Source of the DNA: Thermoanaerobaculia bacterium
GTDB lineage: Bacteria > Acidobacteriota > Thermoanaerobaculia > Multivoradales > UBA5704
Length of the DNA stretch: 64,000 bases
Direction of reading: 5' to 3'
Assembly: GCA_035556715.1 (NCBI GenBank)
Contig: DATMER010000074.1
Span: 3,737-67,736 of the forward strand
The notes beneath the pieces were generated by a model that was given only the letters and a program-made list of their open reading frames with translations, ran no database searches and was not told the origin of the DNA. A program made the translations under genes and the position numbers. This document shows positions 25,152-56,607 of the stretch, in pieces (the stretch's first letter is position 1; every line of letters begins with the position of its first letter).

Positions 25152-25176
25152 GGGGTGGAAAGTCTAGCACCCGGAA

Positions 25177-25343
25177 CCTCACCCCCTGTCCCCCTCTCCC
25201 GTCTCCCACCCCTCCCCCGCCGGGAGAGGGGGAACGTATCTGGGGCCGCCGTGACCGAACGCGAGGCACGACAGCCTCAGTCACGTCCCCCCTCTCCCGG
25301 GGTCGGGCCGGCGGGAGACGGGAGAGGGGGACAGGGGGTGAGG
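25177..25343. repeat. Palindromic repeat family, full copy C
   Basis: CCTCACCCCCTGTCCCCCTCTCCC...GGGAGAGGGGGAACG...CCCCCCTCTCCCGGGG...GGGAGAGGGGGACAGGGGGTGAGG in the divergent region between the NicO-like gene and smc. Confidence 0.7.
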
Positions 25344-25460
25344 TCTCCACTCCCCTACCACATCTTGTGGTCATCTTCCAGACTCGCCCACAGCTTGTAG
25401 GACGGTCCGGCCGTCTGATATCCTGCCCCGCACGGTCGAAACCGCCAGGGCACATCACAC

Positions 25461-41671: not shown

Positions 41672-43104
41672 AACGGACGCTGACGAGCCTGGTCCTGCTG
41701 CTCCTCCTGGCCGGAGCGAAGAAGGCCGCCGCCCCTCCCCCGCCGGTCGGTGTGACCGTCACGCGGAGCGGCAACGCGGAGGTCGTCCGCGCCGTGCTGC
41801 CCGGCTACCTCGAGGAAGTCGAGCTCCCCCGGCAGGCGGATGGGAAGCTGGACGTCGTCCTCCTCCTGAACGAGAAGGAACCGGACCCTGAGGACCTGAG
41901 GCGGCGGGAGCGGGACGGCGATCGTTCCGCCGACCCGGAGGACGCCGACAAGGCGCCGCGCTCTCTCCACCGTCTCGACCTCGCGGGCCAGGGCGCTCTC
42001 CGGCCGCTGCTCCAGGAAGTCCCACCTGGCACGCTGGGCGCCCTGGATCTGGACGGCGACGGCGCCGAGGAGGTCCTCCTGTCGACGAAGGATGGTCTCC
42101 GCTCGCTCGGTCCGGCCCACAAGCCGTCGGCTCCGCGGACGGTGCTGGACCTTTCCGGAGACCTGAGCTTCCCTTCCCGCTGGCGGAACGAGGAGATGCC
42201 CGGCGTCCTGGCAGGCGGCTTGGGTAAGGCCCGCGTTTATCTGCCGAACGGCAACGGACTGGCGCCATCCGTCGAGCGCGAGCTGCCGTCCCGGGCCACG
42301 CGCGAGCGCTGGGGCATCCGTCTCACGAGCCCCCGGGTGCGGACGGTGCGCGGGGACAGCCAGCTCCTCGCCGCCGGTCCCGAGGCCGAGGGCAAGCAGC
42401 GCCTCCGCAGCCTCCTGATCGGCGCGGACTCCACCACGGCAATCTGGTCCATCCTCCCCTCTCCCGAAGAGGTGGACACCGCCTGGTACGTGAAGATCGA
42501 CGGCATGCCCTCGCTGATCGTCACGAGCACGGCCGCGGACAAGATCGGGATCTTCGACAGCAAGCGGCTGCGGGTCTTCCCCCTGGTGGCCGACCGCGCC
42601 AGCGCGGGCCGGCGCCCCGTGCTGGCGACCCAGACCACGAGCCACCGCTGGCTTCCGGTCGATCCCGTGGTCATGGACCTGGACCGCGACGGCAAGGACG
42701 ATCTCGTGGTGCTCCAGCTCGACGGCATGGGTGGCGGAGAGGTCATCGCCGAGACCTTCTTCGGCCGGGGCGACGGCCGTTTCGAGACCCCCGGCCGCCG
42801 TCAGAAGTGGGACCTGGAGACCCGGGACTGGTGCTACGGCAAGGACCTGACCGGCGACGGCATCGCCGATCTAGCCCTGGCCGACCGCTGGAGGCTGCTC
42901 GTCTTTCCCGGCACCAAGGACCCCCGGCGCGCGCTCCTGGAGCGGAAGCCGCTGGAGATCCCGCTCAATCTCGGGAAAGGAGAGGACGGCGGCGCGAGGA
43001 GCCTACGGATCGCCGACCTCGACGCCGACGGCCGGAACGAGGCCGTGCTCACCGGCTCCGTGGCCACCGGGGGGGCTGTGGTGGTGGTGGTGCGGTTCCG
43101 GTGA
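41668..43104 (+). CDS. FG-GAP/VCBS-repeat lipoprotein
   Basis: Start overlaps the upstream stop (ATGA); LLAGAKK lipobox-like signal; DLDGDG, DLDRDGKDD, DLTGDGIAD and DLDADGRNE repeats. Confidence 0.65.
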   Translation: MKRTLTSLVLLLLLAGAKKAAAPPPPVGVTVTRSGNAEVVRAVLPGYLEEVELPRQADGKLDVVLLLNEKEPDPEDLRRRERDGDRSADPEDADKAPRSLHRLDLAGQGALRPLLQEVPPGTLGALDLDGDGAEEVLLSTKDGLRSLGPAHKPSAPRTVLDLSGDLSFPSRWRNEEMPGVLAGGLGKARVYLPNGNGLAPSVERELPSRATRERWGIRLTSPRVRTVRGDSQLLAAGPEAEGKQRLRSLLIGADSTTAIWSILPSPEEVDTAWYVKIDGMPSLIVTSTAADKIGIFDSKRLRVFPLVADRASAGRRPVLATQTTSHRWLPVDPVVMDLDRDGKDDLVVLQLDGMGGGEVIAETFFGRGDGRFETPGRRQKWDLETRDWCYGKDLTGDGIADLALADRWRLLVFPGTKDPRRALLERKPLEIPLNLGKGEDGGARSLRIADLDADGRNEAVLTGSVATGGAVVVVVRFR

Positions 43105-44806
43105 GGGCTGGGCGGGAGCAGGCGGACGCCGGCCGCATCTTCTGCCAGTAGTGCGGGATGGGCACCGGCCCCAGCTCCATCATCCCGTCCAGGAACGCCT
43201 TGAGCTGGAAGGATTCGCCCTTCGTCTTGCGGACCTCGTCGTAGAGCCCCTGCGCCTCGCGGTCGCCCAGGTAGTAGAAGGTGAGCTGTGGCGACGAAGT
43301 GATGGCGCGGACCCACATGTTGTTGGCGAACTGATCGTCCTGGAGGGCCTCCTCCCGGACGTAGCGCAGGACCTCGTCGCGGCTCATGTTCCGGGTGTGG
43401 ACGCGAATGTCCACCACGGTGCGGGCGATGTTCTCGAGCTGCTTCTTGAGGTGAGCCAGGCGGTCCAGCGGGCCGCCCCAGCCGAGGTCGAGGAGCAGCC
43501 GCTCCGAGAAGGTCCCCCATCCCTCCACGTAGACGCCGTCCGAGAAGAGCGCCCGCACCTTGCGCGGGTGGCGCGCGGCCCACTTGAGCTGCACGTAGTG
43601 GCCCGGAACCATTTCGTGCGGCGTGATCATGCGGTTGAAGTGGCTGTTGAAGTCGCGGAAGAACGCCGCCTTCTGCTCGGGCGTGGCGCTGTCCGGGACC
43701 GTGGGCAGGTAGAAGAGGGTGTCCGCATCCGGGGCGAAGGGACCCGCGGGATAGACCCCGCCCACGGCCTGGCCGATGAAGAAGGACGGCGAGCGGTCGA
43801 TGTGGAGCGTCGTGGGCTCGGGCAGGGTCATGAGGCCCTTGCTGCGCACGAACTCCAGCGCCTCGGGGACCAACTTGCGGTAGTCGGCCACGAACTCGTC
43901 CATGTCCTTGGCGTGGTCGGCGGCCACGCGCTCGAACAGGCGGCGGAGCAGCTCGCGGTCGTCCGCGGGAGCTTCTCCGGTCATCAAGTCCTTCCACACG
44001 CTCCGTCCATACGCAGCGGCCTCGGTCCTCCGGGCAGCCAGGGCGGCCTCGGCCCCGGCGAGCACGCGCTCCACCGGCTCCTCCACTCCGGTCACCAGCC
44101 GGAAGCGAGCAGCGTAGTCCTTTCCCAGGCGGGGAGAGCCGGTGGCCTTCTTCTGCAGACCGTCCAGGAACGTGGCCAGATCATCGAGAGCGGCTGCGGC
44201 CTGCCGCCCTGCTGCCTTCGCCTCCGGGGTATCCGCAATCTGCGGGAAACCCTCGCGGTAGAACTTCGCCGAGCCACGCAGGATGTTGGCCGCGATGCCA
44301 CAGATCTCAGGAGAGATCCGGGACGGATCGGCAAGCGCCTCCCGCGCCTGGGCCGCGAGCCGGGGGAGCTGCGCAGCCCGCGCAGCGGCCCGCGACAGCC
44401 GCTCGGCCTTGGGCAGGTCGTCGCGGACCAGGAGGAAGACCGTGGCGTCGCCCACGATGCCGGTCCAGAACAGCGGGTCCGTCTGCGGCCGAGCCTGGGT
44501 GCCGTGCTCGAAGACCTCCAGCTCGGCCTGCCGCAGGAGGAGCTCGGCATCGAGACGATCCTCAAAGGAGGTCGAAGGGGCTGTCATGAGCCGGCGGAAG
44601 CCGTCCGCGGCCCCGCGGTTGAAGTTGAGCCAGGACCGGCGGCGCGCCTCTGAAAGGTCCTCCAGGCGGCGGTCCAGGTCATGGCGCCCGGCCGCGGTCG
44701 CCTTGGTCGGGTACATGTCGAAGTAGCGCTCCAGGTAGGCGTCCTGGAAGGTCGTGGCCTGGGCGGGGGCGGCCAGGGCGGCGAGCAGGAGGAGGACGGT
44801 TTTCAT
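43049..44806 (-). CDS. DUF885-family secreted metalloprotein (HExxH)
   Basis: Signal MKTVLLLLAALAAPAQA; HEMVPGH zincin-like motif in the DUF885 context. 3' end overlaps the convergent gene by ~55 nt, so the exact stop is uncertain. Confidence 0.7.
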   Translation of the reverse strand: MKTVLLLLAALAAPAQATTFQDAYLERYFDMYPTKATAAGRHDLDRRLEDLSEARRRSWLNFNRGAADGFRRLMTAPSTSFEDRLDAELLLRQAELEVFEHGTQARPQTDPLFWTGIVGDATVFLLVRDDLPKAERLSRAAARAAQLPRLAAQAREALADPSRISPEICGIAANILRGSAKFYREGFPQIADTPEAKAAGRQAAAALDDLATFLDGLQKKATGSPRLGKDYAARFRLVTGVEEPVERVLAGAEAALAARRTEAAAYGRSVWKDLMTGEAPADDRELLRRLFERVAADHAKDMDEFVADYRKLVPEALEFVRSKGLMTLPEPTTLHIDRSPSFFIGQAVGGVYPAGPFAPDADTLFYLPTVPDSATPEQKAAFFRDFNSHFNRMITPHEMVPGHYVQLKWAARHPRKVRALFSDGVYVEGWGTFSERLLLDLGWGGPLDRLAHLKKQLENIARTVVDIRVHTRNMSRDEVLRYVREEALQDDQFANNMWVRAITSSPQLTFYYLGDREAQGLYDEVRKTKGESFQLKAFLDGMMELGPVPIPHYWQKMRPASACSRPALTGTAPPPPQPPRWPRSR

Positions 44807-44832
44807 GGGCGGGAGGATATCGCGAGGGCGGA

Positions 44833-44998
44833 CCTCACCCCCTGTCCCCCTCTCCCATCTCCCACCCGGCCCCCGCCGGGAGAGGGGGAACGTGGCTGAG
44901 GCCATCTTGCCTTCGCTCAGGCACGACTGCCACAGATACGTCCCCCCTCTCCCGGGGAGGGTAGGGCGGGAGATGGGAGAGGGGGACAGGGGGTGAGG
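44833..44998. repeat. Palindromic repeat family, full copy E
   Basis: Near-identical to copy C (CCTCACCCCCTGTCCCCCTCTCCCATCTCCC...GGGAGAGGGGGACAGGGGGTGAGG). Confidence 0.7.
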
Positions 44999-45002
44999 TC
45001 TC

Positions 45003-48000
45003 TTAAAACCGCGCCGCCGCCGCCTGCCGCTCGAGCTGCATGACCTTGGCGTCGGGGTCCACCACCACCTGCTCGGGCTCGAACGGGCAGCGGATCTTCG
45101 CCACCTTCTCCTCCCCCGCCCCGAGGACCAGCGTGACGCGCGACTCCTTGTAATCGGGAGAGACCCGGCCGTCCTCACCCCAGCGCCAGCCGGCCGCGGC
45201 GGCGACCTCGACGGGCATGCGGCCGGTGCCGGCGTTCTTTACCCTCACGGTCACCTCCCACTCCCCTCCCCGCTGCTCCTTCTTCGCGTCCGAGAGCTGG
45301 TACTCGGGGATCACGATGCCGAAGAACCACTGCCGGGCGAACTCGTCGTAGGCGGTTTTGTCCGGTGCGTGGCGGCGCATCGCGGCCACGAAGTCGTGGA
45401 CCACCGGGTGGTCCGGGTTGTTGTGATAGATCCGGAAGTAGTCCCGCGTCCCTTCGAAGAAAGCCTCCCGGCCCATAAGGTGCATCAGCATCCACGTAAC
45501 CCACATGCCCTTGTCGTAGATGACCGCCGTATCCCCCGGCCGGAAACGGTAGGTCTCGGCGAGCGGCTTCTCGTCGCTCGGCTGGCGGAACTCGGCGTAA
45601 AAGGTCTCGGACCGGATGGCGAAGCCGATGCTCGGCTGCAAGCCCCGCAGCTCCTCGGTGAGCAGCCGCGTGGCGAAATGGGCGGTGCCCTCGGACATCA
45701 CCACGCCCCCCGGACCCTCGCCATCCTGCACGACGTGCCCCCACCAGGAGTGGGCGGCCTCGTGGGCGGCGATCAAGAAGGCCGCGTCGATGTCGGGCAT
45801 GCGGCGCGTGAGGAAGCCGATCCCCTCGGAAAAGAAGATGTTCGTGGCATTGCCCCGGCCGTACTGCACCAGGTTCGGGAACTCGTTGAGCCGCAGCTCG
45901 CGCCACGGGTAGGGATGGAACCACTCCGAGAAGTGCTGCCGGGCGCCGTCCATCGCCTCCAGCATGCTGTCCAGGTTGTACGTGTGCTCGGGGTGATGGT
46001 AGATGACCGTGCCGTTCTTCCCGCGCTTCTCGGCCCAGCGGCCGAAGGCGATGTTGAAGACCCGCACCGGGTAATCGGTGATCCAGACCACGGTGCGGCG
46101 GCCGTCCCGGACCTCATTGCTCTCCAGGGCTCCGGTGGAGGTCAGCATGTACTCCGCGGGCAGCGTCACCCGCAGGCGGTGGGTGAAGGCCGAGCGGTCG
46201 AGCTCCGCCTGGGTGATCCCGCGGTGCCAGCCGGGAGGGAAGGTCCGGGGCTGGTGCCCCCGCTCCTCGTTCTCGTGCTGGACCTGCGGATCCGCGCCGA
46301 TCTCGGGCTGGTACCCGATTATTGGCACGAAGTCGGGGTTGCGCCCGGTGACGAGACCCCCGGCCGGGGTGATGAACTCGCCCTGAGTCACGGGCCCGCC
46401 CTTGAGCGAGATGCCGGGGAGCAGCGCCCCCTCGTAGCGGAAGCCCAGCCGGACCGTGCCACCCGGACGCAGCGACAGCCGGAAGATCTGGAGACCGTGG
46501 CTGTCTTCCGGCTTCACCGGCTTGCCGTTCAGAGTCCACGAAAGCCCCTTCCACGCCTTCCCCACCGTGACCGAGAACCAGGGCAGCTCCTGCGGGTGCT
46601 CGTTGCGCAGATCGTAGAAGCCGTTCACCTGGAAGCTCCGGGTATCGGGCTCCAGGTCCAGGTCCATCTCCACGTTGGCGATGTACGGCCCCGGCTGGTT
46701 CAGCCAGGTCGAGTGGTTGAACCGCCAGTAGTCCTCACGCCACTTGCGGACCGCTCCCCCTTCGTAGCCCCGGTTCACCTGGGACCAGAGGGCGAAGCCG
46801 AACGCGAGGGGGACGAGCGCGAGCGCCGCGGCGGTTAGGAGCGTCCTCTTCCGCTGGCCCGGCTGCCGGCCGAAGAGCGGGTGGAGCGGGTCGCGGTCCT
46901 GGCGCGCGAAGAGCCGGAAGGCCAGGTAGAGGAACAGGGCCGCGAGACCGAGCACCATCAGCCGGTTGAGGAGCAGGGCCGCCCGGTCCATGGGGAAGGT
47001 CCCCATGTCCGTCCAATTGAGGGCTCCGAAGAGCGCCCAGTTCCCCGCCCAAGTCATGTTGTTCTCCACCAGGGCCCAGACGGTCAGGATGAGCGCCATG
47101 AAACCGACCCCGTAGGTGCCGAACTGGCTTCGAGTGAGAGCGAACACGGCCAGGAGGAAGGAGACCCAGAGGATCACGGTGGGGATGAGCAGCAGCCCCC
47201 AGACCAGGAGGAAGGGTCCAAGGTCCATGTCCACGACGCCGCCCTGGTTGCGCATGACTATCGCCGCCGTGAACAGCGCCGCCAGCAGGACGGCGAGGAC
47301 GATCGCGCCGTTGGCGAGGGTCTTGCCCAGGAGCAGGGACGCCGTCCGGACCGGGGTAGTGTAGATCACCGCCGCCGCGCCCGTGGCGAGCTCCCGGCGC
47401 AGGGATTCCACCGTGTAGAAGAGCAGAAGGAGGAGCAGGCCGGCGGTCAGGATGTTGAACGAGCTCACCGCCGCGGTGCCGGGGGTGAGATAGATGTTCG
47501 ACTGGAACTCGTTCTCGAACTGGTTTACGAAGAAGAGCGCGACCAGGTTCAGGACGATGAAGACGAGGATGTACAGGGCCGGATGGGAGAACAGCTCCTT
47601 GATCTCGAACCGGGCCACCGTGAGAAGGCCGGATAGCGTCCCCCGCGCGCGGGAAGTCATGCCCAGGACGCCGAGAGGCTCCGAAGTCGGCACCGTGACC
47701 GCAGCCTCTTCAGCCTTGCGCCGCCAGCGCTCCCAGCGGGGAGCCTTCCGCGCCGTCTTGAGCCGTCCCGCGAAATGCCGCCGGGAAAGGTCCACCAGGA
47801 GCAGCCCCACCGCCGCGACCCCGAGGCGGCTCAGCAGGTACGGCGCCGACCAGGCGATCGGCTGCGTGTTGTAGTAAGCGATCCCCCGGTCCACCGTTAG
47901 ATAGGTCTGCCGCAGCCACTTGAAGCCCGAGGGGTCGAGCATCTGGACCCAGAACCGGGTGGTCTGGCTGATGTCCATCGGGTTCCAGCTCCAGAAGAAC

Positions 48001-48653
48001 CCCCAGAAGAAGAGGAATGCGGCCACCGGCAGGAAGAAGACCAGGACCGGCTTTCCAGTGAAGCGGCCGAGGGCGAAGGCGGCCCCGGCGACGAATAGAG
48101 CCGTCGGCACCAGGATCACCAGGATCGGGACCACGTAGATGCGCAGCGCGAACGGTCCGTAGGCCTCGGGCCGCTCCGGGTTCGGCATACCATGGGTGAA
48201 CACGATGATCATCAGGACGAACAGCGCGAGGACGCCCAGAGTGCTCCCGACCGCGCCCAGGAACTTGCCCCAGACGTACTCGCCGGGAGACAGCGGCGTC
48301 GAGTGCAGGATCTCGCCGACTTTGTTCTCGGCGTCGCGGATCAGCGGCGTGCCGGCGGCGATGGCCACGAAGAAGGAGAGGACGAAGAAGCCCATGATCG
48401 CCGCCACGTAGGCGATCTGGAACTCGGAGTTCACGTAGGCCAGGTTGCCCCCCATGGACGTGCTGTTCGAGCGCACGAGCCACTCCCCCTGGGACACCAT
48501 CCGGGCGTTCCAGGCCATGAAGATCACCCAGAACCAGAAGAACGGGCGGCGCAGGGACTCCTGGAGATCGAGCTGCGTGACGAGCCAGAGGCGGCGGATG
48601 CTCAAGGGCGGACCTCGCGATGCTGCTTCATGGTGGCTTCCTCCTCCAGCCAT
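45003..48653 (-). CDS. ABC-2 type transporter permease fused to C-terminal M1-family aminopeptidase domain
   Basis: N-terminal ~800 aa has many TM helices in ABC-2 permease style; C-terminal HEAAHSWWGH (HExxH) M1 zinc motif. Start uncertain: ATG 48653 or a frameshifted start at 48631 with a strong RBS. Confidence 0.65.
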   Translation of the reverse strand: MAGGGSHHEAASRGPPLSIRRLWLVTQLDLQESLRRPFFWFWVIFMAWNARMVSQGEWLVRSNSTSMGGNLAYVNSEFQIAYVAAIMGFFVLSFFVAIAAGTPLIRDAENKVGEILHSTPLSPGEYVWGKFLGAVGSTLGVLALFVLMIIVFTHGMPNPERPEAYGPFALRIYVVPILVILVPTALFVAGAAFALGRFTGKPVLVFFLPVAAFLFFWGFFWSWNPMDISQTTRFWVQMLDPSGFKWLRQTYLTVDRGIAYYNTQPIAWSAPYLLSRLGVAAVGLLLVDLSRRHFAGRLKTARKAPRWERWRRKAEEAAVTVPTSEPLGVLGMTSRARGTLSGLLTVARFEIKELFSHPALYILVFIVLNLVALFFVNQFENEFQSNIYLTPGTAAVSSFNILTAGLLLLLLFYTVESLRRELATGAAAVIYTTPVRTASLLLGKTLANGAIVLAVLLAALFTAAIVMRNQGGVVDMDLGPFLLVWGLLLIPTVILWVSFLLAVFALTRSQFGTYGVGFMALILTVWALVENNMTWAGNWALFGALNWTDMGTFPMDRAALLLNRLMVLGLAALFLYLAFRLFARQDRDPLHPLFGRQPGQRKRTLLTAAALALVPLAFGFALWSQVNRGYEGGAVRKWREDYWRFNHSTWLNQPGPYIANVEMDLDLEPDTRSFQVNGFYDLRNEHPQELPWFSVTVGKAWKGLSWTLNGKPVKPEDSHGLQIFRLSLRPGGTVRLGFRYEGALLPGISLKGGPVTQGEFITPAGGLVTGRNPDFVPIIGYQPEIGADPQVQHENEERGHQPRTFPPGWHRGITQAELDRSAFTHRLRVTLPAEYMLTSTGALESNEVRDGRRTVVWITDYPVRVFNIAFGRWAEKRGKNGTVIYHHPEHTYNLDSMLEAMDGARQHFSEWFHPYPWRELRLNEFPNLVQYGRGNATNIFFSEGIGFLTRRMPDIDAAFLIAAHEAAHSWWGHVVQDGEGPGGVVMSEGTAHFATRLLTEELRGLQPSIGFAIRSETFYAEFRQPSDEKPLAETYRFRPGDTAVIYDKGMWVTWMLMHLMGREAFFEGTRDYFRIYHNNPDHPVVHDFVAAMRRHAPDKTAYDEFARQWFFGIVIPEYQLSDAKKEQRGGEWEVTVRVKNAGTGRMPVEVAAAAGWRWGEDGRVSPDYKESRVTLVLGAGEEKVAKIRCPFEPEQVVVDPDAKVMQLERQAAAARF

Positions 48654-48713
48654 TACGGGTGGCGGGCGGTCGGGTTTCAGGTAGGATTGTGCCAACCTCC
48701 TGAGGAGAAGGAT

Positions 48714-49520
48714 ATGACCCGATTCCGTTGGGTATTGGCCTTCGTGCTGGCCGCCGGTTGCGCGACCGCTCCCCCGCCTCCGAAGCCCGCGGCTCTGCCT
48801 GCTCCTGGCACCGAAGACCTCTGGGCAGTCTACGCCGCGGCAGTGCGGACGGCGCAATACCCCGTCCAGGACCACATCTCCCGCGATCTGGTGCCGATCC
48901 TCCGCACCAATCCGGAGCTGCGTTGGGACCAGGGGCGTGTCCTGATGGCCACCTGGACGAAGAAGAAGTACTACGAGGGCAAGGTCGGCCAGCCCTACAC
49001 GCTTCCCAAAGGCGTCACCGTCTGGCTGACCGCCGTGCCCTATCTCCAGGAGGACTGCCGCGGCTGGGGCCTTCCTGCCGAGAAGCTTCCCCTCCGCATT
49101 GCCCAGTCGCTGGGCCTGCCGCCGCCGTCCGAGGGAGGCAACGACGCCTTCGTCCAGATGTGGGTCGATCCCCGCACGTTCTTCCGTCCCTGCTCCGATC
49201 CCGAGATCACCGACCAGGAGTGCCAGGTTTATCTCGACGGTGGGCCGGCCGACCGGACCGGCGATTGTCCGTGGTCCGCCGATCAAGTCTCCGGCGCCTT
49301 CGTCCGCGTCTCGGACAGCCACCTCGACTGGATGTGCGGCAACTGGAAGAGCACCTACACCGGGGACCCGATGACCAGCTATCCGTGGACCGCTCTCGGC
49401 TACACCTTCGACTGGGGGGACCTCCTCCACCCCTGGGGCCAGAGCGAGTATGTGGTGCCGCCGGGAACGACGGTGTGGATCGACAAGAAGATCTTCACGG
49501 CGGAGGAGTACTGCCGGTAG
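48714..49520 (+). CDS. Lipoprotein of unknown function
   Basis: MTRFRWVLAFVLAAGCATAPP lipobox; several Cys; its 3' end is duplicated downstream at 50195-50340. Confidence 0.6.
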   Translation: MTRFRWVLAFVLAAGCATAPPPPKPAALPAPGTEDLWAVYAAAVRTAQYPVQDHISRDLVPILRTNPELRWDQGRVLMATWTKKKYYEGKVGQPYTLPKGVTVWLTAVPYLQEDCRGWGLPAEKLPLRIAQSLGLPPPSEGGNDAFVQMWVDPRTFFRPCSDPEITDQECQVYLDGGPADRTGDCPWSADQVSGAFVRVSDSHLDWMCGNWKSTYTGDPMTSYPWTALGYTFDWGDLLHPWGQSEYVVPPGTTVWIDKKIFTAEEYCR

Positions 49521-49525
49521 TGCTT

Positions 49526-49822
49526 CTAAGATCCGAGGCGATACTTCCAATAGTCTGGATGGCGGCTGTGGTGCTTGACCACTAGGATGCGTATGTCGTC
49601 GCCTTCCTGGCGGTAGTAGATGCCATAAGGAAAACGCCGCATCACCAAGCGTCGCACATCATCCTCGACGACCCGCCAGCGATAGGGGGCGGCCAGGATC
49701 GCAGCAATGGCAGCGTCGAAATCGCGCAGGAAGCGACTGCCGAGCCCTGGCTCCCGGCCTTCGTAGAACCGGACGGCCTCAACCAACTCTCCCTCAGCGT
49801 CCGGATGGTAGGTCAGCTTCAT
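49526..49822 (-). CDS. relE: RelE/ParE-family toxin
   Basis: 98 aa; RelE/ParE-like conserved basic residues RRFPYGIYYRQEGDDIRILVVKHHSRHP. Confidence 0.8.
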   Translation of the reverse strand: MKLTYHPDAEGELVEAVRFYEGREPGLGSRFLRDFDAAIAAILAAPYRWRVVEDDVRRLVMRRFPYGIYYRQEGDDIRILVVKHHSRHPDYWKYRLGS

Positions 49823-50052
49823 CGGAGAGCTCGGCGCGCAGCCTCCATGACCTGCTCGTGAGACCGGCCCTCGACCGCCCCCGTAGCCAGCTCTCGATCC
49901 CGCCTCTTAGCCTGATCGACGGCTTCTCGCTCCTCAGCGCCGCCGCCAACTCCAGGCTCTTCATCGATGCTCTGCCAGAGCGCTTGCGCCAAGTCAATCC
50001 GATCTGACAGCGGTAGCGCCAGCACCTTCTGGGTAAGCTCTTCGTTCGACAT
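49819..50052 (-). CDS. Addiction-module antitoxin (TIGR02574-like)
   Basis: MSNEELTQKVLALPLSDRIDLAQALWQSIDEE; its stop overlaps the relE start. The upstream in-frame extension to 50154 is a duplicated 5' fragment of the DUF3782 gene. Confidence 0.6.
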   Translation of the reverse strand: MSNEELTQKVLALPLSDRIDLAQALWQSIDEEPGVGGGAEEREAVDQAKRRDRELATGAVEGRSHEQVMEAARRALR

Positions 50053-50194
50053 GGCTTCCAAAGTAAGAGGTCCCTGAGCTTGAGTCAAGCGAGCCTGTCT
50101 AGCACCAGACCTGAGCTCTTGGTCGGTCACGGAATCAATGTTCTCCCAAAGCACACCCGCAGTGACATCCTATCACGCGACGTGACCATCTCAC

Positions 50195-50340
50195 CTGGCA
50201 GCGCTCGGCTACACCTTTGACTGGGGGATGTCCTCCATCCTAAAGGACAGAGCGAGTACGTGGTGCCGCCGGGAACGACTGTGTGGATCGAGAAGATCTT
50301 CACGGCAGAGAGTACTGCGGAGGAGAAACCCAGACACCCT
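50195..50340 (+). pseudogene. Decayed duplicate of the 3' end of lipoprotein gene 48714..49520
   Basis: ~85% nucleotide identity to 49385-49520, with two 3-nt deletions; encodes ...VVPPGTTVWIEKIFTAE. Confidence 0.6.
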
Positions 50341-50351
50341 GACTCCGAAGC

Positions 50352-50398
50352 CGCGCGGGCGGGGGCTTCCTCTCCCGCGAAGCGGGGGAGGATAGAGG
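50352..50398. repeat. Left inverted repeat (IR-L) of STAND cassette
   Basis: GGGCTTCCTCTCCCGCGAAGCGGGGGAGGATAGAGGAGGGGGTC is ~42/47 identical to the inverse complement of 53286-53332. Confidence 0.6.
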
Positions 50399-50408
50399 AG
50401 GGGGTCTT

Positions 50409-50804
50409 CTACCCGTTCCCCACCCGGTTCCCGCTCCCCGCAATCTGGACGTTCGTGTTGCCGTCCCCGGTGATGTTCGCCGTCTGCTGGATCGAGACCC
50501 CCGGCCGGACCTCTTCCACGAGGCGAGCCAACTCGGTGAGAAGGTCGGGATCCGCCGCGAGCCGCTCCTCCAGGAACAGGCGCACGGCCGCCTGGGCATC
50601 CGGCTTCTCCGGCGCGGCCTCCAGCTTGGTCAGGGCCTTCTCCTCGGCGGGTCCGGTGAAACGCTGCTTGAGTGTCTGATACAGCTTGCCGGCTCCCCCG
50701 ACGGTCGCCTCCCCGATCTTCTTCGCACCGGCCTTGGCAGCTTCGACGAGATAGGGGGATAGTAAGGTTACGACGGCTGTTGCGACGGTCGCAGGATCGA
50801 TCAT
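50409..50804 (-). CDS. Small hypothetical protein sharing a terminal motif with the adjacent STAND ATPase
   Basis: 131 aa. C-terminal ITGDGNTNVQIAGSGNRVGNG resembles the STAND N-terminal SGEQNVNVQIQGDNNVVLLG. Confidence 0.45.
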   Translation of the reverse strand: MIDPATVATAVVTLLSPYLVEAAKAGAKKIGEATVGGAGKLYQTLKQRFTGPAEEKALTKLEAAPEKPDAQAAVRLFLEERLAADPDLLTELARLVEEVRPGVSIQQTANITGDGNTNVQIAGSGNRVGNG

Positions 50805-50839
50805 GAGGGGCTCCCTGGGTCAGGAGAAGGTTCGAAAGG

Positions 50840-53242
50840 CTACGGCGATTCGGGCGGTTGGATCTTCTGAAAGGTAGAGTCGATTGCCTCGATCAGCTCG
50901 GAATCGGGTTGCCGATCGTTCTGCTCCGAGAGTCTTAGATACAAGGAGGTCATCTTCGCCATTCCTTCCTGCAAAGTCGCCGGGCGGGCTAAGAAAAAAT
51001 GCAGATGCATTCGGACAGCCTCCTCCGAAAACTGCAGCGCCTTACCAAAATCACCGAACTCCTGTAGGCAACAGGCTAAATTGTAAAGAGAGAAGGCAAG
51101 ACTCAGCCTGAACTCTTCCAGGCCAGTTTGCGAGAGATCACGAAATACATCCACTGCCTCTGCCGCCACCTCTAGTGCCTCTTCGCGACGGCCAAGATCG
51201 CTCAGAATGCCTGACAGGATGGTGAGCGACTTTCCAAGGTCCGGACGGAACGCGTCCGGATGAGACTGCGAAAGCTCGCGATATACATCCACCGCCTCCT
51301 GCACTGCCTTGAGAGCCTCTTTATGATGGTCAAGAAGGCGCAGCCAGAGAGCCAGATTGCTGAGCGATGCCGCAAGCTGCAAACGAAATACGCCGGGAGA
51401 GGACTGCGAAAGCTCACGACATACATCCACCGCCGCCTGCACTGCCTCCAGCGCCTCTTTATAACGCCTAAGATCACCCAGACAGCTAGACAGGTTGATG
51501 AGCGACTTCCCAAGATCCGGAAGGAATGCGTCTGGGCGGGACTGTGCAAGCTCGCGCAAGATGGCCACCGACTCCTGAACAGCCTCCAAGGCCTCTTTGT
51601 GACGGCCGAAACCGCTCAGACGGTTGGACAGGGTAATTAGCGAAAGCGCCAAGTGCGGACGAGACGTGTCCTGCGGAAGCTCGCGATTTGCATCCACCGC
51701 CTCCTGCGCCAAATGCAGAGCCTCTTCGCTACGGCCAAGAGCGTTCAGACGGATGGACAGGTTGTTGATGAACCCGGCCAGCTCTTCCTTGTCACCTTCC
51801 ACCCGGAGCCTTTCCACCACCGCTGCCGTGAGCCTTGCGGCGACCTCGCGCAAGACCAGTGTCTTCTCCGGGAGCTGATTGACCAGCCTCAACAGAGCTT
51901 GCGTGTCTCCGACTCTTTCCGCCAGGCAATCGAGCCATTCCGCGGGCCTCCCATCCACGCCGCCGAAGTCCTGGGCCATCCGGATGACCACTGCGGTGAT
52001 GCGCTCCGGCGCGATGGCGGCCGCGCGGGCGACCGACTCCCTGGCCTTGCCGGGATCGCCGTCGCCGAGGGCGAGGAGGATTGCGGCCTCCCCTACGATG
52101 TCCGGAAGGATTGGTGCGACGTCCGCCCCTGCCCTGGGGAGCACCGCGTGCAGGATCTTGTAGATCTCTGGAGGATCACCGACTCTAACGTAGCGCAACG
52201 CTCTCGCCTCGACCTCGATGGCTTCTTCCGCCTGATCGCGCGTGAGCCCCTGGCAGAGGGTCGCATACGCCGCCATGTGGCAGACCAGGGACCGTGAGTG
52301 TTGCAGGCGGCTCTCGCCGATCCGCCCGATCCGGTTCAGCTCGTGCCGCCGGGCGACCTCGAAGGCTAGGTCGGACCTATTCAAGGTGAGGACGTGCGCG
52401 AAGCCCTCCCTTGCCGCAATCAAGCCGGCCATCAAAAGGAAAAGCGGCTCGCCGCCCCACTCCAGTTTTGCCAGGTCGCGGTCGAACCCACGGCCCTCCT
52501 CCGGCAGCCTCAGATCGCTCCCCGCCTTACTGAATACCTCTTCGAGGATGTTGCGCCGGTCCTCGACAGGCGCGAGAGGAGAGAGCACGTAAGGGCCATC
52601 GGCAGGATCGAGCTTGCGCTGGACGGCGGTATCGCCCCACCCTCCGCTCTGGAAGGCTTCCGCCCACCAGCCGCCTTTGGGATCGGCGTACCGCTCGAGG
52701 AGCAGGATACGGAGCTTGCCGCCAGCCGGCGGTGAGCTGGCGAGGTCGTCCAGCCAATCCCGCAGCCAGGGGAGTCGGGCAGCCGCGTAGTCCACTACGG
52801 CGAGGGTGGGGCGCGGCAGGCTGGCCGTGACGGATTCCAGGGACGGGGTGGCCTTCACGAAACCGGCGCTCCATCCCCGTAGGACTGCCTCCTCGCAGAG
52901 CTCCAGGGCGAGGCGTGTCTTGCCGCCTCCTCCAGGCGCCGTGACCACGCGGATGGACAGGTCCGGATCACCATCCATCCAGGACCAGAGGTCGGCAAGC
53001 TCCCGCTCCCGTCCCACGAGGGGGACCGCCATGGCGTAGGGGCTGAGGATCTCGGCGGCCTCGCCTGCCTCAACGGGGGAAGAGAGGGCTTCCCTCCGGC
53101 GGCCCCGGTAGAGCGTGAGGTCGAGACGGGACCTACCGAGGAGGACGACGTTGTTGTCGCCCTGGATCTGCACGTTGACGTTCTGCTCCCCGGAGAGGCT
53201 CGCGCTCTGGGAACGGCTCGGCGCGTCGGGGTCGGAGGGCAT
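50840..53242 (-). CDS. STAND-type P-loop NTPase with C-terminal TPR array
   Basis: Walker A VVTAPGGGGKTRLALEL; hhhhD Walker B LAVVD; at least 8 TPR units, several encoded by near-identical 126-bp nucleotide repeats. Confidence 0.75.
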   Translation of the reverse strand: MPSDPDAPSRSQSASLSGEQNVNVQIQGDNNVVLLGRSRLDLTLYRGRRREALSSPVEAGEAAEILSPYAMAVPLVGRERELADLWSWMDGDPDLSIRVVTAPGGGGKTRLALELCEEAVLRGWSAGFVKATPSLESVTASLPRPTLAVVDYAAARLPWLRDWLDDLASSPPAGGKLRILLLERYADPKGGWWAEAFQSGGWGDTAVQRKLDPADGPYVLSPLAPVEDRRNILEEVFSKAGSDLRLPEEGRGFDRDLAKLEWGGEPLFLLMAGLIAAREGFAHVLTLNRSDLAFEVARRHELNRIGRIGESRLQHSRSLVCHMAAYATLCQGLTRDQAEEAIEVEARALRYVRVGDPPEIYKILHAVLPRAGADVAPILPDIVGEAAILLALGDGDPGKARESVARAAAIAPERITAVVIRMAQDFGGVDGRPAEWLDCLAERVGDTQALLRLVNQLPEKTLVLREVAARLTAAVVERLRVEGDKEELAGFINNLSIRLNALGRSEEALHLAQEAVDANRELPQDTSRPHLALSLITLSNRLSGFGRHKEALEAVQESVAILRELAQSRPDAFLPDLGKSLINLSSCLGDLRRYKEALEAVQAAVDVCRELSQSSPGVFRLQLAASLSNLALWLRLLDHHKEALKAVQEAVDVYRELSQSHPDAFRPDLGKSLTILSGILSDLGRREEALEVAAEAVDVFRDLSQTGLEEFRLSLAFSLYNLACCLQEFGDFGKALQFSEEAVRMHLHFFLARPATLQEGMAKMTSLYLRLSEQNDRQPDSELIEAIDSTFQKIQPPESP

Positions 53243-53285
53243 GGATTCGGCTCGTCGGAGGTTTCTCTCAAGATATCACGCGCAG

Positions 53286-53332
53286 ATGTGCGGACCCCCT
53301 CCCCTGCCCTCCCCCGCTGCGCGGGAGAGGGA
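53286..53332. repeat. Right inverted repeat (IR-R) of STAND cassette / partial palindromic-family copy F
   Basis: GACCCCCTCCCCTGCCCTCCCCCGCTGCGCGGGAGAGGGAGCC; followed at 53336-53353 by GGAGGAGTACTGCCGGTGG, a copy of the lipoprotein 3' end. Confidence 0.6.
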
Positions 53333-53351
53333 GCCCGGAGGAGTACTGCCG

Positions 53352-53625
53352 GTGGCGCGAGAGATTGTGAGCGGCAGGCGCGCGGCGCACGCCCTGAGAG
53401 GGCGGCTTCCGCCCTTTAAAGGGCGGTGTCCGCCCTCTGAGGGACGATGCTCGCCCTTTGAGGGACGATGCCCGCCCTCTGAGGGGCAGCCTTCGCCCTT
53501 TGAGGGACGATGTCCGCCCTTCGAGGGACGGTCTCCGCCCTTCGAGGGGCGATGCCCGCCCTTTGAGGGATGGCATCCGCCCTTTGAAGGCGACGGCCGC
53601 CCCGGAAGGGCGAGCGCCTCCGCAT
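53352..53625. repeat. Tandem array of ~13 x 21-bp direct repeats
   Basis: Unit consensus CGCCCTYYGAGGGACGATGYC, each containing a CCCT-N3-AGGG mini-palindrome. ORFs on both strands here show heptad periodicity and are repeat artefacts. Confidence 0.75.
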
Positions 53626-53667
53626 GAGGACATCCGGCGACCGGAGAGGAGTTATTGCCTGTAGAGC

Positions 53668-54249
53668 CTAGAAGACGCGAGGCTGGAAGCTCTCGGGTAC
53701 ATCGAGCTGGAACTGGTCGTCGTGGATCCGGGCGAAGTAGAAGCCTTCCTGGAGCACCTTCTCCTGCAGCTTGCCAGGCGCGTGCACCGCGGCGATGATT
53801 CCGTAGACCTTCTTGTCCTTGTAGATGGGGAAGAAGTCGCGGAACTCCTGGAGAATCCTGTTCATCTGGTCGAGAGCCTCTTCGCGGAGGTGGCTCTTGA
53901 CCTCGACGACGAACATGTCGTCGCTGAAGTTGGAGAAGGCGAGCACGTCAACCTCCATGGAGTGGCCGTTGCGCTTGACCCGGACGCTGGGAGCGATCAC
54001 TTCCATGCCGAAGCGCTGGCTCAGGATCTTGGCCATGGATGGGAGAGCCAGGCCTTCCGTGAAGCTGCCGAACTTGTCGCTCAGGCCGCCGATCTGCCGC
54101 TTCAGCTCCCGCGTCTCCTCCCGTGCCAGCCGAGCGTACTCCTGCGCGGCCTCACGAAGCACTCGCTCGGTCTCCCGCTGGGACTCAGTCAGCTCGGCAT
54201 GCTTGACTGCCAGCGAAGCCATCAGGTCTCTGAGCTCTTGGTCGGTCAT
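53668..54249 (-). CDS. DUF3782-family PD-(D/E)xK-like protein
   Basis: N-terminal coiled coil (TESQRETERVLREAAQEYARL); EVDVLAFSN ... VVEVKSHL resembles a PD-(D/E)xK core. Start at MTDQELR (54249); the upstream extension to 54303 is shared with the 50093-50150 duplicate. Confidence 0.55.
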   Translation of the reverse strand: MTDQELRDLMASLAVKHAELTESQRETERVLREAAQEYARLAREETRELKRQIGGLSDKFGSFTEGLALPSMAKILSQRFGMEVIAPSVRVKRNGHSMEVDVLAFSNFSDDMFVVEVKSHLREEALDQMNRILQEFRDFFPIYKDKKVYGIIAAVHAPGKLQEKVLQEGFYFARIHDDQFQLDVPESFQPRVF

Positions 54250-54308
54250 GGAATCAATGTTCTCCCGAAGCGCGCCCGCCACTCGATGAGAACATCGTAA
54301 CACGGAAC

Positions 54309-56411
54309 CTACGCCGTCCGGACCCGCACCGCTACGAAGGTGACGTCATCGTTGGGGGGCTTGCCGCCGGTCCAGGAGCGGGCGGATTCGCCGAGGCCGG
54401 CGATGACCTCTTCGGGGCTTCGGGCTCCCAGCTCCTGGAAGCGCTGCCTCACCCGGGGATAGCCGAAGGGCTCCCCGCGGTCGTCCTGCAGTTCGGGCAG
54501 ACCGTCGCTCATCAGGAGCAGCATGTCTCCGGCGGCGATGGCGAAGCTGGCCTCCTGGTAATCAGACGCGAGCCCGCCCAGGGGCATCCCCTCCAGGGCG
54601 ATCTCCTCCACCTCCCCGGCGGCGGCGCGGAAGAGTAGGGCCGGAGGCATGCCGGCCGCGGCGATGGTAAGGGTCTTCCCGTCCACGCGGACGAGGGTCA
54701 GGCCCATGGCCATCCGGCCCAGCTCCATGCGCTTCACGGCGCCTGCGGCTTCGGTCAGGAACTCCCGGGGCGCGGACCTTCCGGAGTCGGCTGAGAACAG
54801 GCTCTTCACCACCGTCACCATGGTCCCGGCCCGGGCGCCGTGCCCCGTGGCATCGCCCACGGTTGCGGTCAGGACGCCCTCCTCCGACAGGTGGAAGTCG
54901 TAGTAGTCGCCCCCGACCTCGGTCGCGGTCTGCATGGACACGGCGATCTCGAAGCCGGGATGGTCGGGCAGGGTCTTGGGCAGGAGGGAGAGCTGGAAGG
55001 CGCGGGCCTCCTCCAGCTCCCGGGTCTTGCGCTCGTACTCGCGGCGCAGGAGCCGCTGCTCGGTCTCCTGCTCCACGAGCCTCTCCTGGTTCTCGCGCAG
55101 GTCGCCCGCCATCCGGTTGAACGCCGCGGCCAGGGCGCCGATCTCGTTGCGCGAGCGCACCGAGACCCGGGTGCCCAGGTCCCCCCCGGCGATCTTCTCC
55201 GCCCCTTGCTTCAGGACGCTGACGTCGCGGGTCATCCGGTTGGACAGCGGCAGGATGCCCACCAGGGCCAGTCCGATCAGGGCGAGGCCCCAGCCGAAGT
55301 TGCGCGCCGCGGTGCGCTTGACCTCTTCCAGGGATTGGCGGATCGGCCGCGCCACGCCCAGGGTCAAACCGCTGTCCGGGTCCTTCGAGGTGACGACCAC
55401 CCAGCCTTCGAGGATGTGCTGCGAGGAGGAGCTGTCGTTTCCGAGGTCGATCGGCAGCCCCTGCACCTTCTTCAGGTCCTCGTCGCTCGCGGCGTGGAAC
55501 TTGCCCTCGGCGTCGACTGCGAAGGGGATCTCGCCGCGCTCCCGGCGTGCCCTGCCGAGGACGCGGCTGAGGACCTGGTCGGGACGGACCCGGGCGCGGA
55601 CCCAGCCGACCACCCGGCCCTGGTCCTTCACCGGCGCCTCGATCTCCTTGCCGAGGAGGAGCCGGGTCTCCTTGCGCCGCTGCTCGAGCCGGGCCTCCAC
55701 CTCCCGGCGGCGCGCCTCGGCCTCGCGCATCTTGCGCTCCACCTCCTCCAGCTTCTCCGGATCGGGCGCGCCGGGATGGACGATGACGACCTTGCCCTCG
55801 TCGCCGGGCACGCCGGTCAGGTTCATGTCCGCGATCTCCTCGGCCGCGATCGCCGTGGCGCTTTCCACGTATTCCGGAATCTCCGCTCCTTGCGCCCTGG
55901 CGTGCTGCTGAGCCTTGCGGACCTCTTCCATGATCTCGCGGACGTCGATGACGATCGGAGGCGCGGGCGGCGCCGGGGGAGCGGGGAAGCCTGCGGAGCC
56001 TTCAGGAGCCGGCTCGGGGGCGGGGGGAGCTTCCGCGGGAGGGACCGGGAGCTCGCCGGAGACGGGATCTATAGGGGGCGCGGCCGGGGTGAACTCCAGC
56101 GAGTCCACGAAGGGCGCGGATTCGCCCATGGCCCGGAGCACTTCGGGCATCTCCGCCTCCAGCTCCTCCTCGACCTGCCGCTCCAGCAGGGTGGAGAGCG
56201 GGATCTCGCCCACCCTCTCGAGGCTGCGCCCGAGCTCCGCCCGGATCGTGGACATCCGGCCGTTCATCTCCTGCGTCAGCTCCGCGGCCTCGGCCTCCAC
56301 CGCCTGGCGCACGGCCCGCTGGGATGACGCATAGGAGTAGAGGACGATTCCGGTCAGCGGCACCACGGAGAGCAGGAGGAAGGCGACGACGAGCTGGGTG
56401 CGGATCTTCAT
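54309..56411 (-). CDS. Membrane-anchored HAMP-domain PP2C-type serine phosphatase (RsbU/SpoIIE-like)
   Basis: N-terminal TM; Pro/Ala-rich linker; second TM plus HAMP (NRMTRDVSVLKQGAEKIAGGDLGTR); PP2C motifs GGDYYDF, ATVGDATGHG, LLLMSDGLPE. Confidence 0.8.
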   Translation of the reverse strand: MKIRTQLVVAFLLLSVVPLTGIVLYSYASSQRAVRQAVEAEAAELTQEMNGRMSTIRAELGRSLERVGEIPLSTLLERQVEEELEAEMPEVLRAMGESAPFVDSLEFTPAAPPIDPVSGELPVPPAEAPPAPEPAPEGSAGFPAPPAPPAPPIVIDVREIMEEVRKAQQHARAQGAEIPEYVESATAIAAEEIADMNLTGVPGDEGKVVIVHPGAPDPEKLEEVERKMREAEARRREVEARLEQRRKETRLLLGKEIEAPVKDQGRVVGWVRARVRPDQVLSRVLGRARRERGEIPFAVDAEGKFHAASDEDLKKVQGLPIDLGNDSSSSQHILEGWVVVTSKDPDSGLTLGVARPIRQSLEEVKRTAARNFGWGLALIGLALVGILPLSNRMTRDVSVLKQGAEKIAGGDLGTRVSVRSRNEIGALAAAFNRMAGDLRENQERLVEQETEQRLLRREYERKTRELEEARAFQLSLLPKTLPDHPGFEIAVSMQTATEVGGDYYDFHLSEEGVLTATVGDATGHGARAGTMVTVVKSLFSADSGRSAPREFLTEAAGAVKRMELGRMAMGLTLVRVDGKTLTIAAAGMPPALLFRAAAGEVEEIALEGMPLGGLASDYQEASFAIAAGDMLLLMSDGLPELQDDRGEPFGYPRVRQRFQELGARSPEEVIAGLGESARSWTGGKPPNDDVTFVAVRVRTA

Positions 56412-56450
56412 CAGGGATAGTTTACGAGGAGATCTCCGGGAAGTTCGGAT

Positions 56451-56584
56451 CCCTCACCCCCTGGCCCCCTCTCCCATCGCACTCCCGCCCTCCCGGGAGA
56501 GGGGGAACCTTTCTTATGCCTCCTCTCTTTTCCCCCTCTCCCGGTGGAAGGGAGGGGATGGGAGAGGGGGCCAGGGGGTGAGGG
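56451..56584. repeat. Palindromic repeat family, full copy G
   Basis: CCCTCACCCCCTGGCCCCCTCTCCC...GGGAGAGGGGGCCAGGGGGTGAGGGG between the divergent phosphatase and M28 genes. Confidence 0.7.
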
Positions 56585-56607
56585 GTCCGTCGGGTAGACT
56601 GCCCTGA

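Follow-up and report, generated by a model that had tools for sequence, protein, structure and literature searches.

A 21-bp tandem array in a soil Acidobacteriota genome is a non-coding copy of a lineage-specific dispersed array class linked to a small protein family

The array and its surroundings

The DNA analyzed here (the window) is a 64-kb stretch of contig C74 from the genome of a soil Acidobacteriota, designated G000, whose assembly comprises 7.84 Mb in 149 contigs with a GC content of 67%. All genes from 43049 to 56411 of the window lie on the minus strand. The features at and around the array are as follows.

50111 to 50160, no strand: arm 2 of a 50-bp direct repeat, preceding an Unstab_antitox gene
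50840 to 53242, minus strand: NTPase/TPR gene of 800 aa with a weak AAA_16 match and TPR repeats (Pfam); start codon at 53242
53240 to 53284, minus strand: leader of the NTPase/TPR gene, near-identical (by eye) in G000 and in the same-genus genome G304
53296 to 53340, no strand: C-rich/G-rich stretch between the array and the leader, resembling part of the GGGAGAGGG nested inverted repeat
53390 to 53618, no strand: tandem array of 11 head-to-tail units of 20-21 bp, counted by eye
53668 to 54282, minus strand: DUF3782-like gene of 204 aa (Pfam PF12644); stop at 53668, 48 bp from the array
54230 to 54279, no strand: arm 1 of the 50-bp direct repeat (92% identity with 50111-50160)
54309 to 56411, minus strand: HAMP/SpoIIE phosphatase gene (Pfam), the synteny anchor for relatives

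Along the direction of transcription, the order is the HAMP/SpoIIE gene, the DUF3782-like gene, a 48-bp spacer, the array, the C-rich/G-rich stretch, the leader and the NTPase/TPR gene. A sequence-only reading of this DNA had placed the array immediately 5′ of the DUF3782 gene; as that ORF runs on the minus strand and stops at 53668, the array is in fact downstream of it, 48 bp 3′ of the stop codon. The array is also 148 bp upstream of the NTPase/TPR start codon. The PF12644 match of the DUF3782-like gene (E 1.9e-4, 22 bits) falls under the 24.4-bit cut-off, and PADLOC gave no match for the genes neighbouring the array. When 53100-53800 was scanned for promoters and terminators, no terminator emerged, and the only promoter-like site was a weak one within the DUF3782 gene. 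The interval 53270-53360 contains no detectable inverted-repeat pair, and Rfam over 49-58 kb of the window yielded no threshold-level match, only sub-threshold noise of the microRNA-type hairpin kind.

The repeat itself is real, as judged by both Tandem Repeats Finder (TRF) and reading of the sequence. TRF, the check that had been proposed, reports a period of 21 with 9.3 copies at 53409-53602, together with an overlapping row of 2.7 copies at 53382-53436. The first estimate of ~13 units at 53352-53625 was too generous, because 11 units were counted over 53390-53618 and the sequence from 53352 to 53389 lies outside the repeat. The units are degenerate (76% matches in TRF), and units 1, 10 and 11 are 20 nt long or degenerate by eye. 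The unit consensus is CGCCCT-YYG-AGGGACG followed by a 5-nt spacer, and each unit constitutes a short dyad with a bulged A and a stem of 5-6 bp. The mini-palindrome CCCT-N3-AGGG, which had been ascribed to every unit, is present in most but not all of them. The core CGCCCT-N3-AGGG occurs nine times in the 64-kb window, each time within the array, compared with 0.78 expected from shuffles, and none of 100 shuffles reached nine. As the units are contiguous, with a start-to-start distance of 21 bp and no unique spacers between them, the array is not a CRISPR, in agreement with the sequence-only reading.

Open frames on both strands, together with a unit length corresponding to seven codons, would be compatible with a piece of a heptad-repeat protein gene. 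This interpretation can hardly be correct. The GC content is flat across the three codon positions (0.62-0.73) in all four ORFs that overlap the array, compared with GC2 of 0.34-0.47 and GC3 of 0.74-0.92 in the genuine neighbour genes, which indicates that the array is non-coding. Furthermore, the longest plus-strand ORF over the array overlaps the real NTPase/TPR gene, and a codon-usage gene model leaves the ORFs over the array uncalled. The initial view that the array does not belong to a repeat-protein gene was therefore borne out.

Several other observations were made in this region. The arms of the 50-bp direct repeat are 4119 bp apart, and the 4.1 kb between them contain the body of the DUF3782 gene as well as the array and the NTPase/TPR gene; each arm consists of a 5′ leader plus first codons (MTDQELR or VTDQELR), and the pair looks like the scar of an insertion or duplication. 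The NTPase/TPR gene (50840-53242) carries 138-bp (46-aa) tandem TPR repeats at 51213-51598, and its GC3 is 0.74, with 0.85-0.92 in its neighbours. In G304, three NTPase/TPR-type genes stand in a row at the SpoIIE/array site, and the NTPase/TPR site looks like a variable STAND-type gene cluster. A second dispersed element is MITE-like and consists of nested inverted repeats of ~170 bp built on CCCCCTCTCCC / GGGAGAGGGGG. Full copies of this element, the GGGAGAGGG nested inverted repeat, occur in the window at 25176-25344, 44831-45000 and 56446-56589, with another copy of this type at L036:3600-3810, and elements of this type produce spurious microRNA-type matches in Rfam. A DUF3782 homologue in the same-genus genome G313 (L022, G313:C7:84374-87922) has a 20-bp array 56 bp past its end (~2105-2303 of L022), the unit type of which is unrelated to that of the window array. 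Counting the window case, arrays lie behind two of seven DUF3782 homologues, which may exceed chance.

A dispersed class of 20/21-bp arrays

Whole-genome analysis of G000 with TRF, counting period-20/21 rows of at least three copies, gave 218 rows of period 21 and 65 rows of period 20, along with many of 41, 42 or 63 bp. The rows merge into ~238 arrays, 60-530 bp long and 43.6 kb in total. According to the codon-usage gene model of G000 (5563 genes, 88.6% coding), 179 of the 238 arrays are intergenic, accounting for 3.6% of intergenic DNA, and 46 lie inside called genes; repeats of other common periods (9, 12, 15 and 18 bp) are mostly coding. Arrays are found in co-directional (85), convergent (45) and divergent (35) gaps, roughly in proportion to the shares of these gap types in intergenic length (49%, 23% and 28%, respectively), as neutral DNA would be. 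Unit sequences across the class are very diverse, and the period of 20/21 bp is kept across unrelated units. A perfect palindrome of at least 5 bp is present in about one-third of the 20-22-bp consensus units, compared with 10% of shuffles. Single-linkage clustering of the unit types by k-mers chained most arrays together and provided no clean family table. The window array is a non-coding copy of this lineage-specific dispersed class of 20/21-bp (or 41/42-bp) arrays, and no description of such arrays was found in the earlier literature. Arrays of this class create false ORFs and should not be annotated as regulators of whichever gene adjoins them.

Arrays are also located at contig ends of the G000 assembly (e.g., C125:1-298, C141:1-186 and C30:32-191), and metagenomic contigs carrying a gene of protein family B (see below) are mostly 1-2 kb long. 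Arrays therefore appear to break short-read assemblies, so that the counts given here are lower bounds. A family of 53 TPR paralogues (~390-530 aa; e.g., C14:15155-16480, C47:906-2072 and C76:112198-113367) is enriched beside arrays in G000, with an array within 500 bp downstream of ~9 of the 53; members of this TPR family also occur within 4 kb of seven of the ~24 B loci.

The unit type of the window array, GCCCY-N3/4-RGGGC, occurs in G000 in arrays only, at four loci. Besides the window array on C74, these are the following sister arrays.

C3:77457-77706: 12 units; neighbours thiC and a small ORF (a B gene)
C135:10457-10582: ~6-7 units
C87 near 8010: 2-3 units

The genome search for further occurrences of the 21-mer, suggested on the basis of the sequence, thus recovered units at three other, unrelated loci. 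Single units of this type are at chance level in G000 (10 versus 8 for a reversed control pattern), the neighbour genes of the four arrays are unrelated to one another, and the units at C74 and C135 point in opposite directions with respect to the genes beside them. Metagenome scans with the leader and with a unit dimer gave no matches. The loci on C135 and C87 have common flanks (C135:9900-11000 and C87:7400-8700) that are 87-98% identical, and they differ in unit number and in inserted sequence. Near-identical flanks with unequal unit numbers are a direct example of copy-number instability. The idea that copy-number variation would point to a contingency locus is only partly sustained: the unit number does differ between C135 and C87, but there is no sign of a switch, and the difference is ordinary array instability. 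The C135/C87 pair arose either by recent duplication or through strain heterogeneity in the MAG, the contamination of which is 4%.

At the corresponding site of G304, the SpoIIE orthologue is 77% identical, and the order is M28 peptidase, SpoIIE, array, a long hairpin, the same leader and NTPase/TPR genes; the DUF3782 gene is absent from this site. The G304 array consists of 12 units of 21 bp and starts ~10 bp after the SpoIIE stop codon. Its orientation is that of the window array, its first unit matches a typical window unit at 16 of 21 positions, and the near-identical leader anchors the orthology of both arrays; by these sequence likenesses, the two arrays look orthologous. The units of the G304 array read CCCC-N4-GGGG. 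In two other genera (G269 and G303), no array is found within 1.5 kb behind the SpoIIE orthologue, and in G269 an inverted-repeat element of the GGGAGAGGG type is located there. No TRF-detectable array lies behind the gene in the same-genus genomes G325 and G331, the contigs of which end 0.8-0.9 kb after it, so that array absence there is weak evidence. A 21-bp recurrence of GGAATG downstream of SpoIIE in G331, noticed by eye, was dropped because TRF did not confirm it.

These comparisons bear on the possibility of a locus-specific operator or iteron array for DUF3782 or NTPase/TPR, or of a replication or recombination site. The 21-bp phasing would fit such a site, and the array is upstream of the conserved NTPase/TPR leader in both G000 and G304. 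However, conservation between the two species extends to the leader but not to the unit sequence, the same units are present at thiC and at two other unrelated loci, and the genome contains hundreds of arrays, with no rep or par genes near the window array. This makes a locus-specific role very improbable. Regulation of the DUF3782 gene, one of the roles proposed in the sequence-only reading, is contradicted by the position of the array 3′ of that gene and by the G304 site, which has an array without DUF3782. The other, an iteron or replication function, conflicts with ~238 arrays in the genome, the lack of an initiator gene nearby and the recurrence of the unit type at three unrelated loci.

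Protein family B and concerted change of the arrays

Clustering of the 294 genes that flank intergenic arrays in G000 led to a family of small proteins of ~125-150 aa without annotation, designated family B. A profile search of the six-frame translation of G000 located 24 B loci. An array is present within 350 bp downstream of nine of the 24, compared with 2.8% of all genes (binomial p = 1e-8), and upstream of only two. Among other genomes, represented by the best B locus of each of 30 genomes, 11 of the 30 B genes have a 20/21/41/42-bp array within 400 bp downstream. The array class is linked in cis to B genes. No two B-linked arrays in G000 have a common unit type, and the genes that follow B-linked arrays vary. 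Under strict thresholds, 19 of 229 arrays without an adjacent B gene are assignable to a B-linked unit type, and large array families such as the CGCCGATAG arrays contain no B-linked copy. The sister array on C3 starts 36-44 bp after the stop of the B gene C3:77047-77421, which is linked to thiC and encodes a helical protein of 124 aa with a basic tail. The window array lacks an adjacent B gene and thus represents an orphan copy of its unit type.

Of 41 genomes sampled from this bacterial family, 37 contain B, with 4-50 matches per genome (mostly 5-50); B was found neither in the four genomes of genus g114 nor in the 117 genomes from 15 other families of the class. It has no match in Pfam, PHROGs, NCBIfam or PADLOC, and a search of genome contigs with an alignment of B orthologues gave no matches. 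In the Atlas, B corresponds only to "hypothetical protein" clusters of Acidobacteriota, and the closest homologues are unnamed metagenomic proteins. The AlphaFold model of B, based on a 26-row alignment, is confident (pLDDT 88) and predicts a short helix, a very long helix and a short helix followed by a basic Arg-rich tail, corresponding to a helical hairpin or coiled coil. Foldseek with this model returned nothing at E <= 0.001, the best VIA-align match (Z 6.8) was to generic coiled coils, and no recognisable DNA-binding fold, including ribbon-helix-helix and helix-turn-helix, is apparent in the model. A relationship between B and DUF3782 was considered and rejected (hhalign probability 3%).

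Array density was compared in 400-kb samples, with relatives as non-independent samples and two B-less lineages: the B-bearing genomes have ~30/Mb (G000), 35/Mb (G304), 22.5/Mb (G305) and 20/Mb (G312), whereas the B-less genomes have 5/Mb (G321, genus g114) and 7.5/Mb (G025, another family). Period 21 is not over-represented in either of the B-less genomes.

The thiC-linked B gene has orthologues in G304, G331 and G313 with 51-55% identity to it, whereas the paralogues compared reach at most 37%, and GCCCY...RGGGC arrays lie behind all orthologues (counted as four). In G331, the end of thiC comes after the B-linked array, as in G000. This link between a B clade and a unit type is partly expected from simple co-inheritance at one locus. 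Two forms of the dyad were counted in arrays of this type.

G000, window array: CCCT-N3-AGGG 8, CCCC-N4-GGGG 0
G000, thiC-locus array: CCCT-N3-AGGG 6, CCCC-N4-GGGG 0
G000, C135 array: CCCT-N3-AGGG 2, CCCC-N4-GGGG 0
G331, B-linked array: CCCT-N3-AGGG 8, CCCC-N4-GGGG 0
G313, B-linked array: CCCT-N3-AGGG 7, CCCC-N4-GGGG 0
G304, SpoIIE-locus array: CCCT-N3-AGGG 0, CCCC-N4-GGGG 7
G304, B-locus array: CCCT-N3-AGGG 0, CCCC-N4-GGGG 6

The two G304 arrays are 430 kb apart. Both contain the derived dyad, in which the inner pair is new and the spacer longer, indicating that unlinked arrays changed together. The sharing of 7-mers is 0.37 and 0.33 across loci within a genome, compared with 0.15 and 0.08 at the same locus between genomes. 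The array class evolves in concert across loci, and this concerted change results either from copying of arrays between loci or from all arrays of the same type tracking a common trans factor.

An alternative is that the array acts as RNA, in which case the 11 GC-rich stem-loops of read-through transcripts would stabilise the mRNA upstream, cause attenuation ahead of NTPase/TPR or be recognised by an RNA-binding protein. Being flanked by co-directional genes, the array is probably transcribed, its predicted fold is far below that of shuffles (z -9.2), the G304 array begins directly after the stop codon of the upstream gene (~10 bp), and the Arg-rich tail of B could be an RNA binder. However, the antisense strand folds equally well (z -9.8). 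Among single stem mismatches on the sense strand of 88 arrays between co-directional genes, G.T mismatches, the G.U type in RNA, are no commoner than A.C mismatches (76 versus 71, p = 0.74), and the same count in B-linked arrays is 11 versus 10. Equal folding of the two strands without an excess of G.T over A.C provides no sign of selection on a one-strand RNA hairpin. The opposite unit orientation at C74 and C135, the lack of a terminator-like site at 53100-53800 and the Rfam result, which was sub-threshold noise only, also argue against an RNA-level role, making it improbable.

Possible functions and comparison with known systems

The explanation preferred here, which is given about even chances, is that the window array is an orphan copy of a class of phased dyad-site arrays that probably serves as a DNA-level platform for a trans factor, the candidate for which is B. 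Each unit would be a dyad-symmetric site on double-stranded DNA, and the 21-bp spacing, equal to two helical turns, would place all sites on one face of the helix, where a putative trans-acting protein would coat the array cooperatively. The candidate for this coating protein is the thiC-linked B paralogue. The length of the array would shift by slippage or unequal exchange, and arrays of the same type would be kept alike because they are copied from locus to locus or co-evolve with the factor they share. Effects on DUF3782 or NTPase/TPR, such as a block of read-through or protection of the 3′-end, would be by-products. The equal folding of both strands and the lack of a G.T excess favour action on DNA over action on RNA. 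Points against this explanation are the absence of a recognisable DNA-binding fold in B, the small number of arrays (19 of 229) assignable to a B-linked unit type, the large array families without a B-linked copy, the perfect palindrome in only about one-third of the consensus units, and the neutral distribution over gap types. An array of binding sites in dyad-bearing 21-bp units, phased by two helical turns as first proposed, is still the functional picture that fits best.

A purely selfish or neutral minisatellite without a dedicated trans factor would account for part of the same data. Hairpin-prone 21-bp units would grow by replication slippage and spread by recombination, and B genes would merely tend to have arrays in their 3′ gaps. 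The unequal unit numbers of the near-identical duplicate loci (~6-7 versus 2-3), the degeneracy of the window units (76% matches), the lack of gap-type preference, the fact that, among same-genus genomes, an array at the window site was seen only in G000 and G304, and the absence of a known DNA-binding fold in B are all consistent with such a minisatellite. On the other hand, the period of 20/21 bp is constant across unrelated unit sequences, the dyad survived a paired change of half-site and spacing at two unlinked loci of G304, arrays are strongly enriched downstream of B, and the B-less genomes are at background density. Considering these points, the minisatellite explanation is possible but rather unlikely.

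As an extension of the DNA-level platform, the arrays and B might together constitute an undescribed repeat-plus-protein system in one Acidobacteriota family, consisting of B paralogues, their cognate arrays and orphan arrays coated in trans; this broader proposal is tentative and stands well short of an even chance. In such a system, each of 5-50 helical, basic-tailed paralogues would have its own 21-bp-phased dyad array directly downstream, and the protein and arrays would co-evolve, so that a change of half-site or spacing would spread to all arrays of the same type in the genome. If this is true, the window array would be a trans target of the thiC-linked B paralogue, and the whole would be a chromosome-wide device for marking or organising DNA, or a REPIN/RAYT-like symbiosis without a transposase.

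Tandem arrays of comparable design are known from plasmid partition. The parC site of pSK41 comprises 20-bp tandem repeats bound by ParR, and sopC of F comprises 43-bp repeats with an inverted repeat bound by SopB. Centromeres of this type adjoin a parA-parB/parR operon, whose adaptor protein binds them. Like the arrays of G000, these centromeres are tandem dyad units of about two or four helical turns beside a small-protein gene, and cooperative coating, thought or shown to occur in partition, would be the counterpart of that proposed here. In contrast, hundreds of arrays are present here on a chromosome, each genome encodes 5-50 protein paralogues, no ParA-type ATPase was recognised beside the window array (Pfam detects neither ParA nor ParB among its neighbours), and the B model shows neither a ribbon-helix-helix nor a helix-turn-helix fold. 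Iterons of plasmid origins resemble the window array as direct repeats of ~20 bp in phase with the helix. Origin iterons measure about 17-22 bp, a size that the window repeat fits, and lie beside the gene of their initiator, with a single origin in each replicon. Unlike them, the window array has no initiator gene and no AT-rich or DnaA-box context, its neighbours being DUF3782, NTPase/TPR and SpoIIE genes; arrays occupy many positions on the chromosome, and at the orthologous site the sequence of the unit has not been preserved. Type III toxin-antitoxin systems contain tandem repeats (ToxI) directly upstream of an endoribonuclease toxin, acting as strand-specific RNA. Repeats of this type were considered and rejected, as neither the neighbours nor B have a PADLOC match, no strand asymmetry exists and the genes after B-linked arrays vary.

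In the eukaryotic "library" model, satellite DNA evolves in concert. Satellite DNA resembles the G000 arrays in that units are alike within a genome and differ between species at one locus, and in its unstable copy number. The arrays differ from eukaryotic satellites in being bacterial and very short (60-530 bp), in the dyad that their units contain and in their link to a protein family.

Among known repeats, REP/BIME comes closest, but the G000 arrays depart from it in two defining features. As with REP/BIME and REPIN-RAYT of Proteobacteria (PMC3733652, PMC3333891, PMC3116915), the G000 units are short, GC-rich, palindromic, intergenic and in high copy. Tandem reiteration, which REP/BIME shows in some cases, and patchiness between lineages are shared as well, and both kinds comprise several families in a genome, with a single vertically inherited gene associated with each family. 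The 21-bp units fall within the size given for REP/BIME, an imperfect extragenic palindrome of 20-40 bp in many copies. REP/BIME occurs mainly as single units or inverted pairs (head-head or tail-tail), whereas only head-to-tail arrays with a fixed period of 20/21 bp are observed here, inverted pairs and single units being at chance level. REP units carry a tetranucleotide tag, GTAG or CGTC, at one of their ends (PMC3733652). On the reverse strand of the window unit, CGTC coincides in part with the stem, but other unit types of the class lack it, so that a constant GTAG/CGTC tag does not appear to characterise the array class of G000.

The linked gene also differs, as it encodes a small helical protein here and a Y1 (HUH) transposase in REPIN-RAYT, where the repeats flank the cognate RAYT gene. 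PF01797 detects nine IS-like copies of 307-315 aa in G000, in addition to one truncated copy and one match inside an unrelated ORF. These Y1_Tnp elements (eight or nine IS-like copies, at C117:34880-35824, C10:28499-29443, C110:33005-33931, C73, C48, C28, C124 and C55) have terminal inverted repeats and conserved ends, TTCCAGGAATGACATT ... CCCCTGGAAC. Arrays are present within 1 kb of three of the copies, but their unit types all differ from that of the window, and no copy lies near arrays of the window unit type in G000. A RAYT link was therefore rejected, since the Y1 elements look like ordinary multi-copy insertion sequences weakly associated with arrays; the arrays may be preferred insertion targets of these elements. 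If the link with B holds, the arrays would represent a testable case of a bacterial repeat family that, along with a protein family dedicated to it, is kept uniform at unlinked loci, and would bear on the purpose and upkeep of REP-like repeats.
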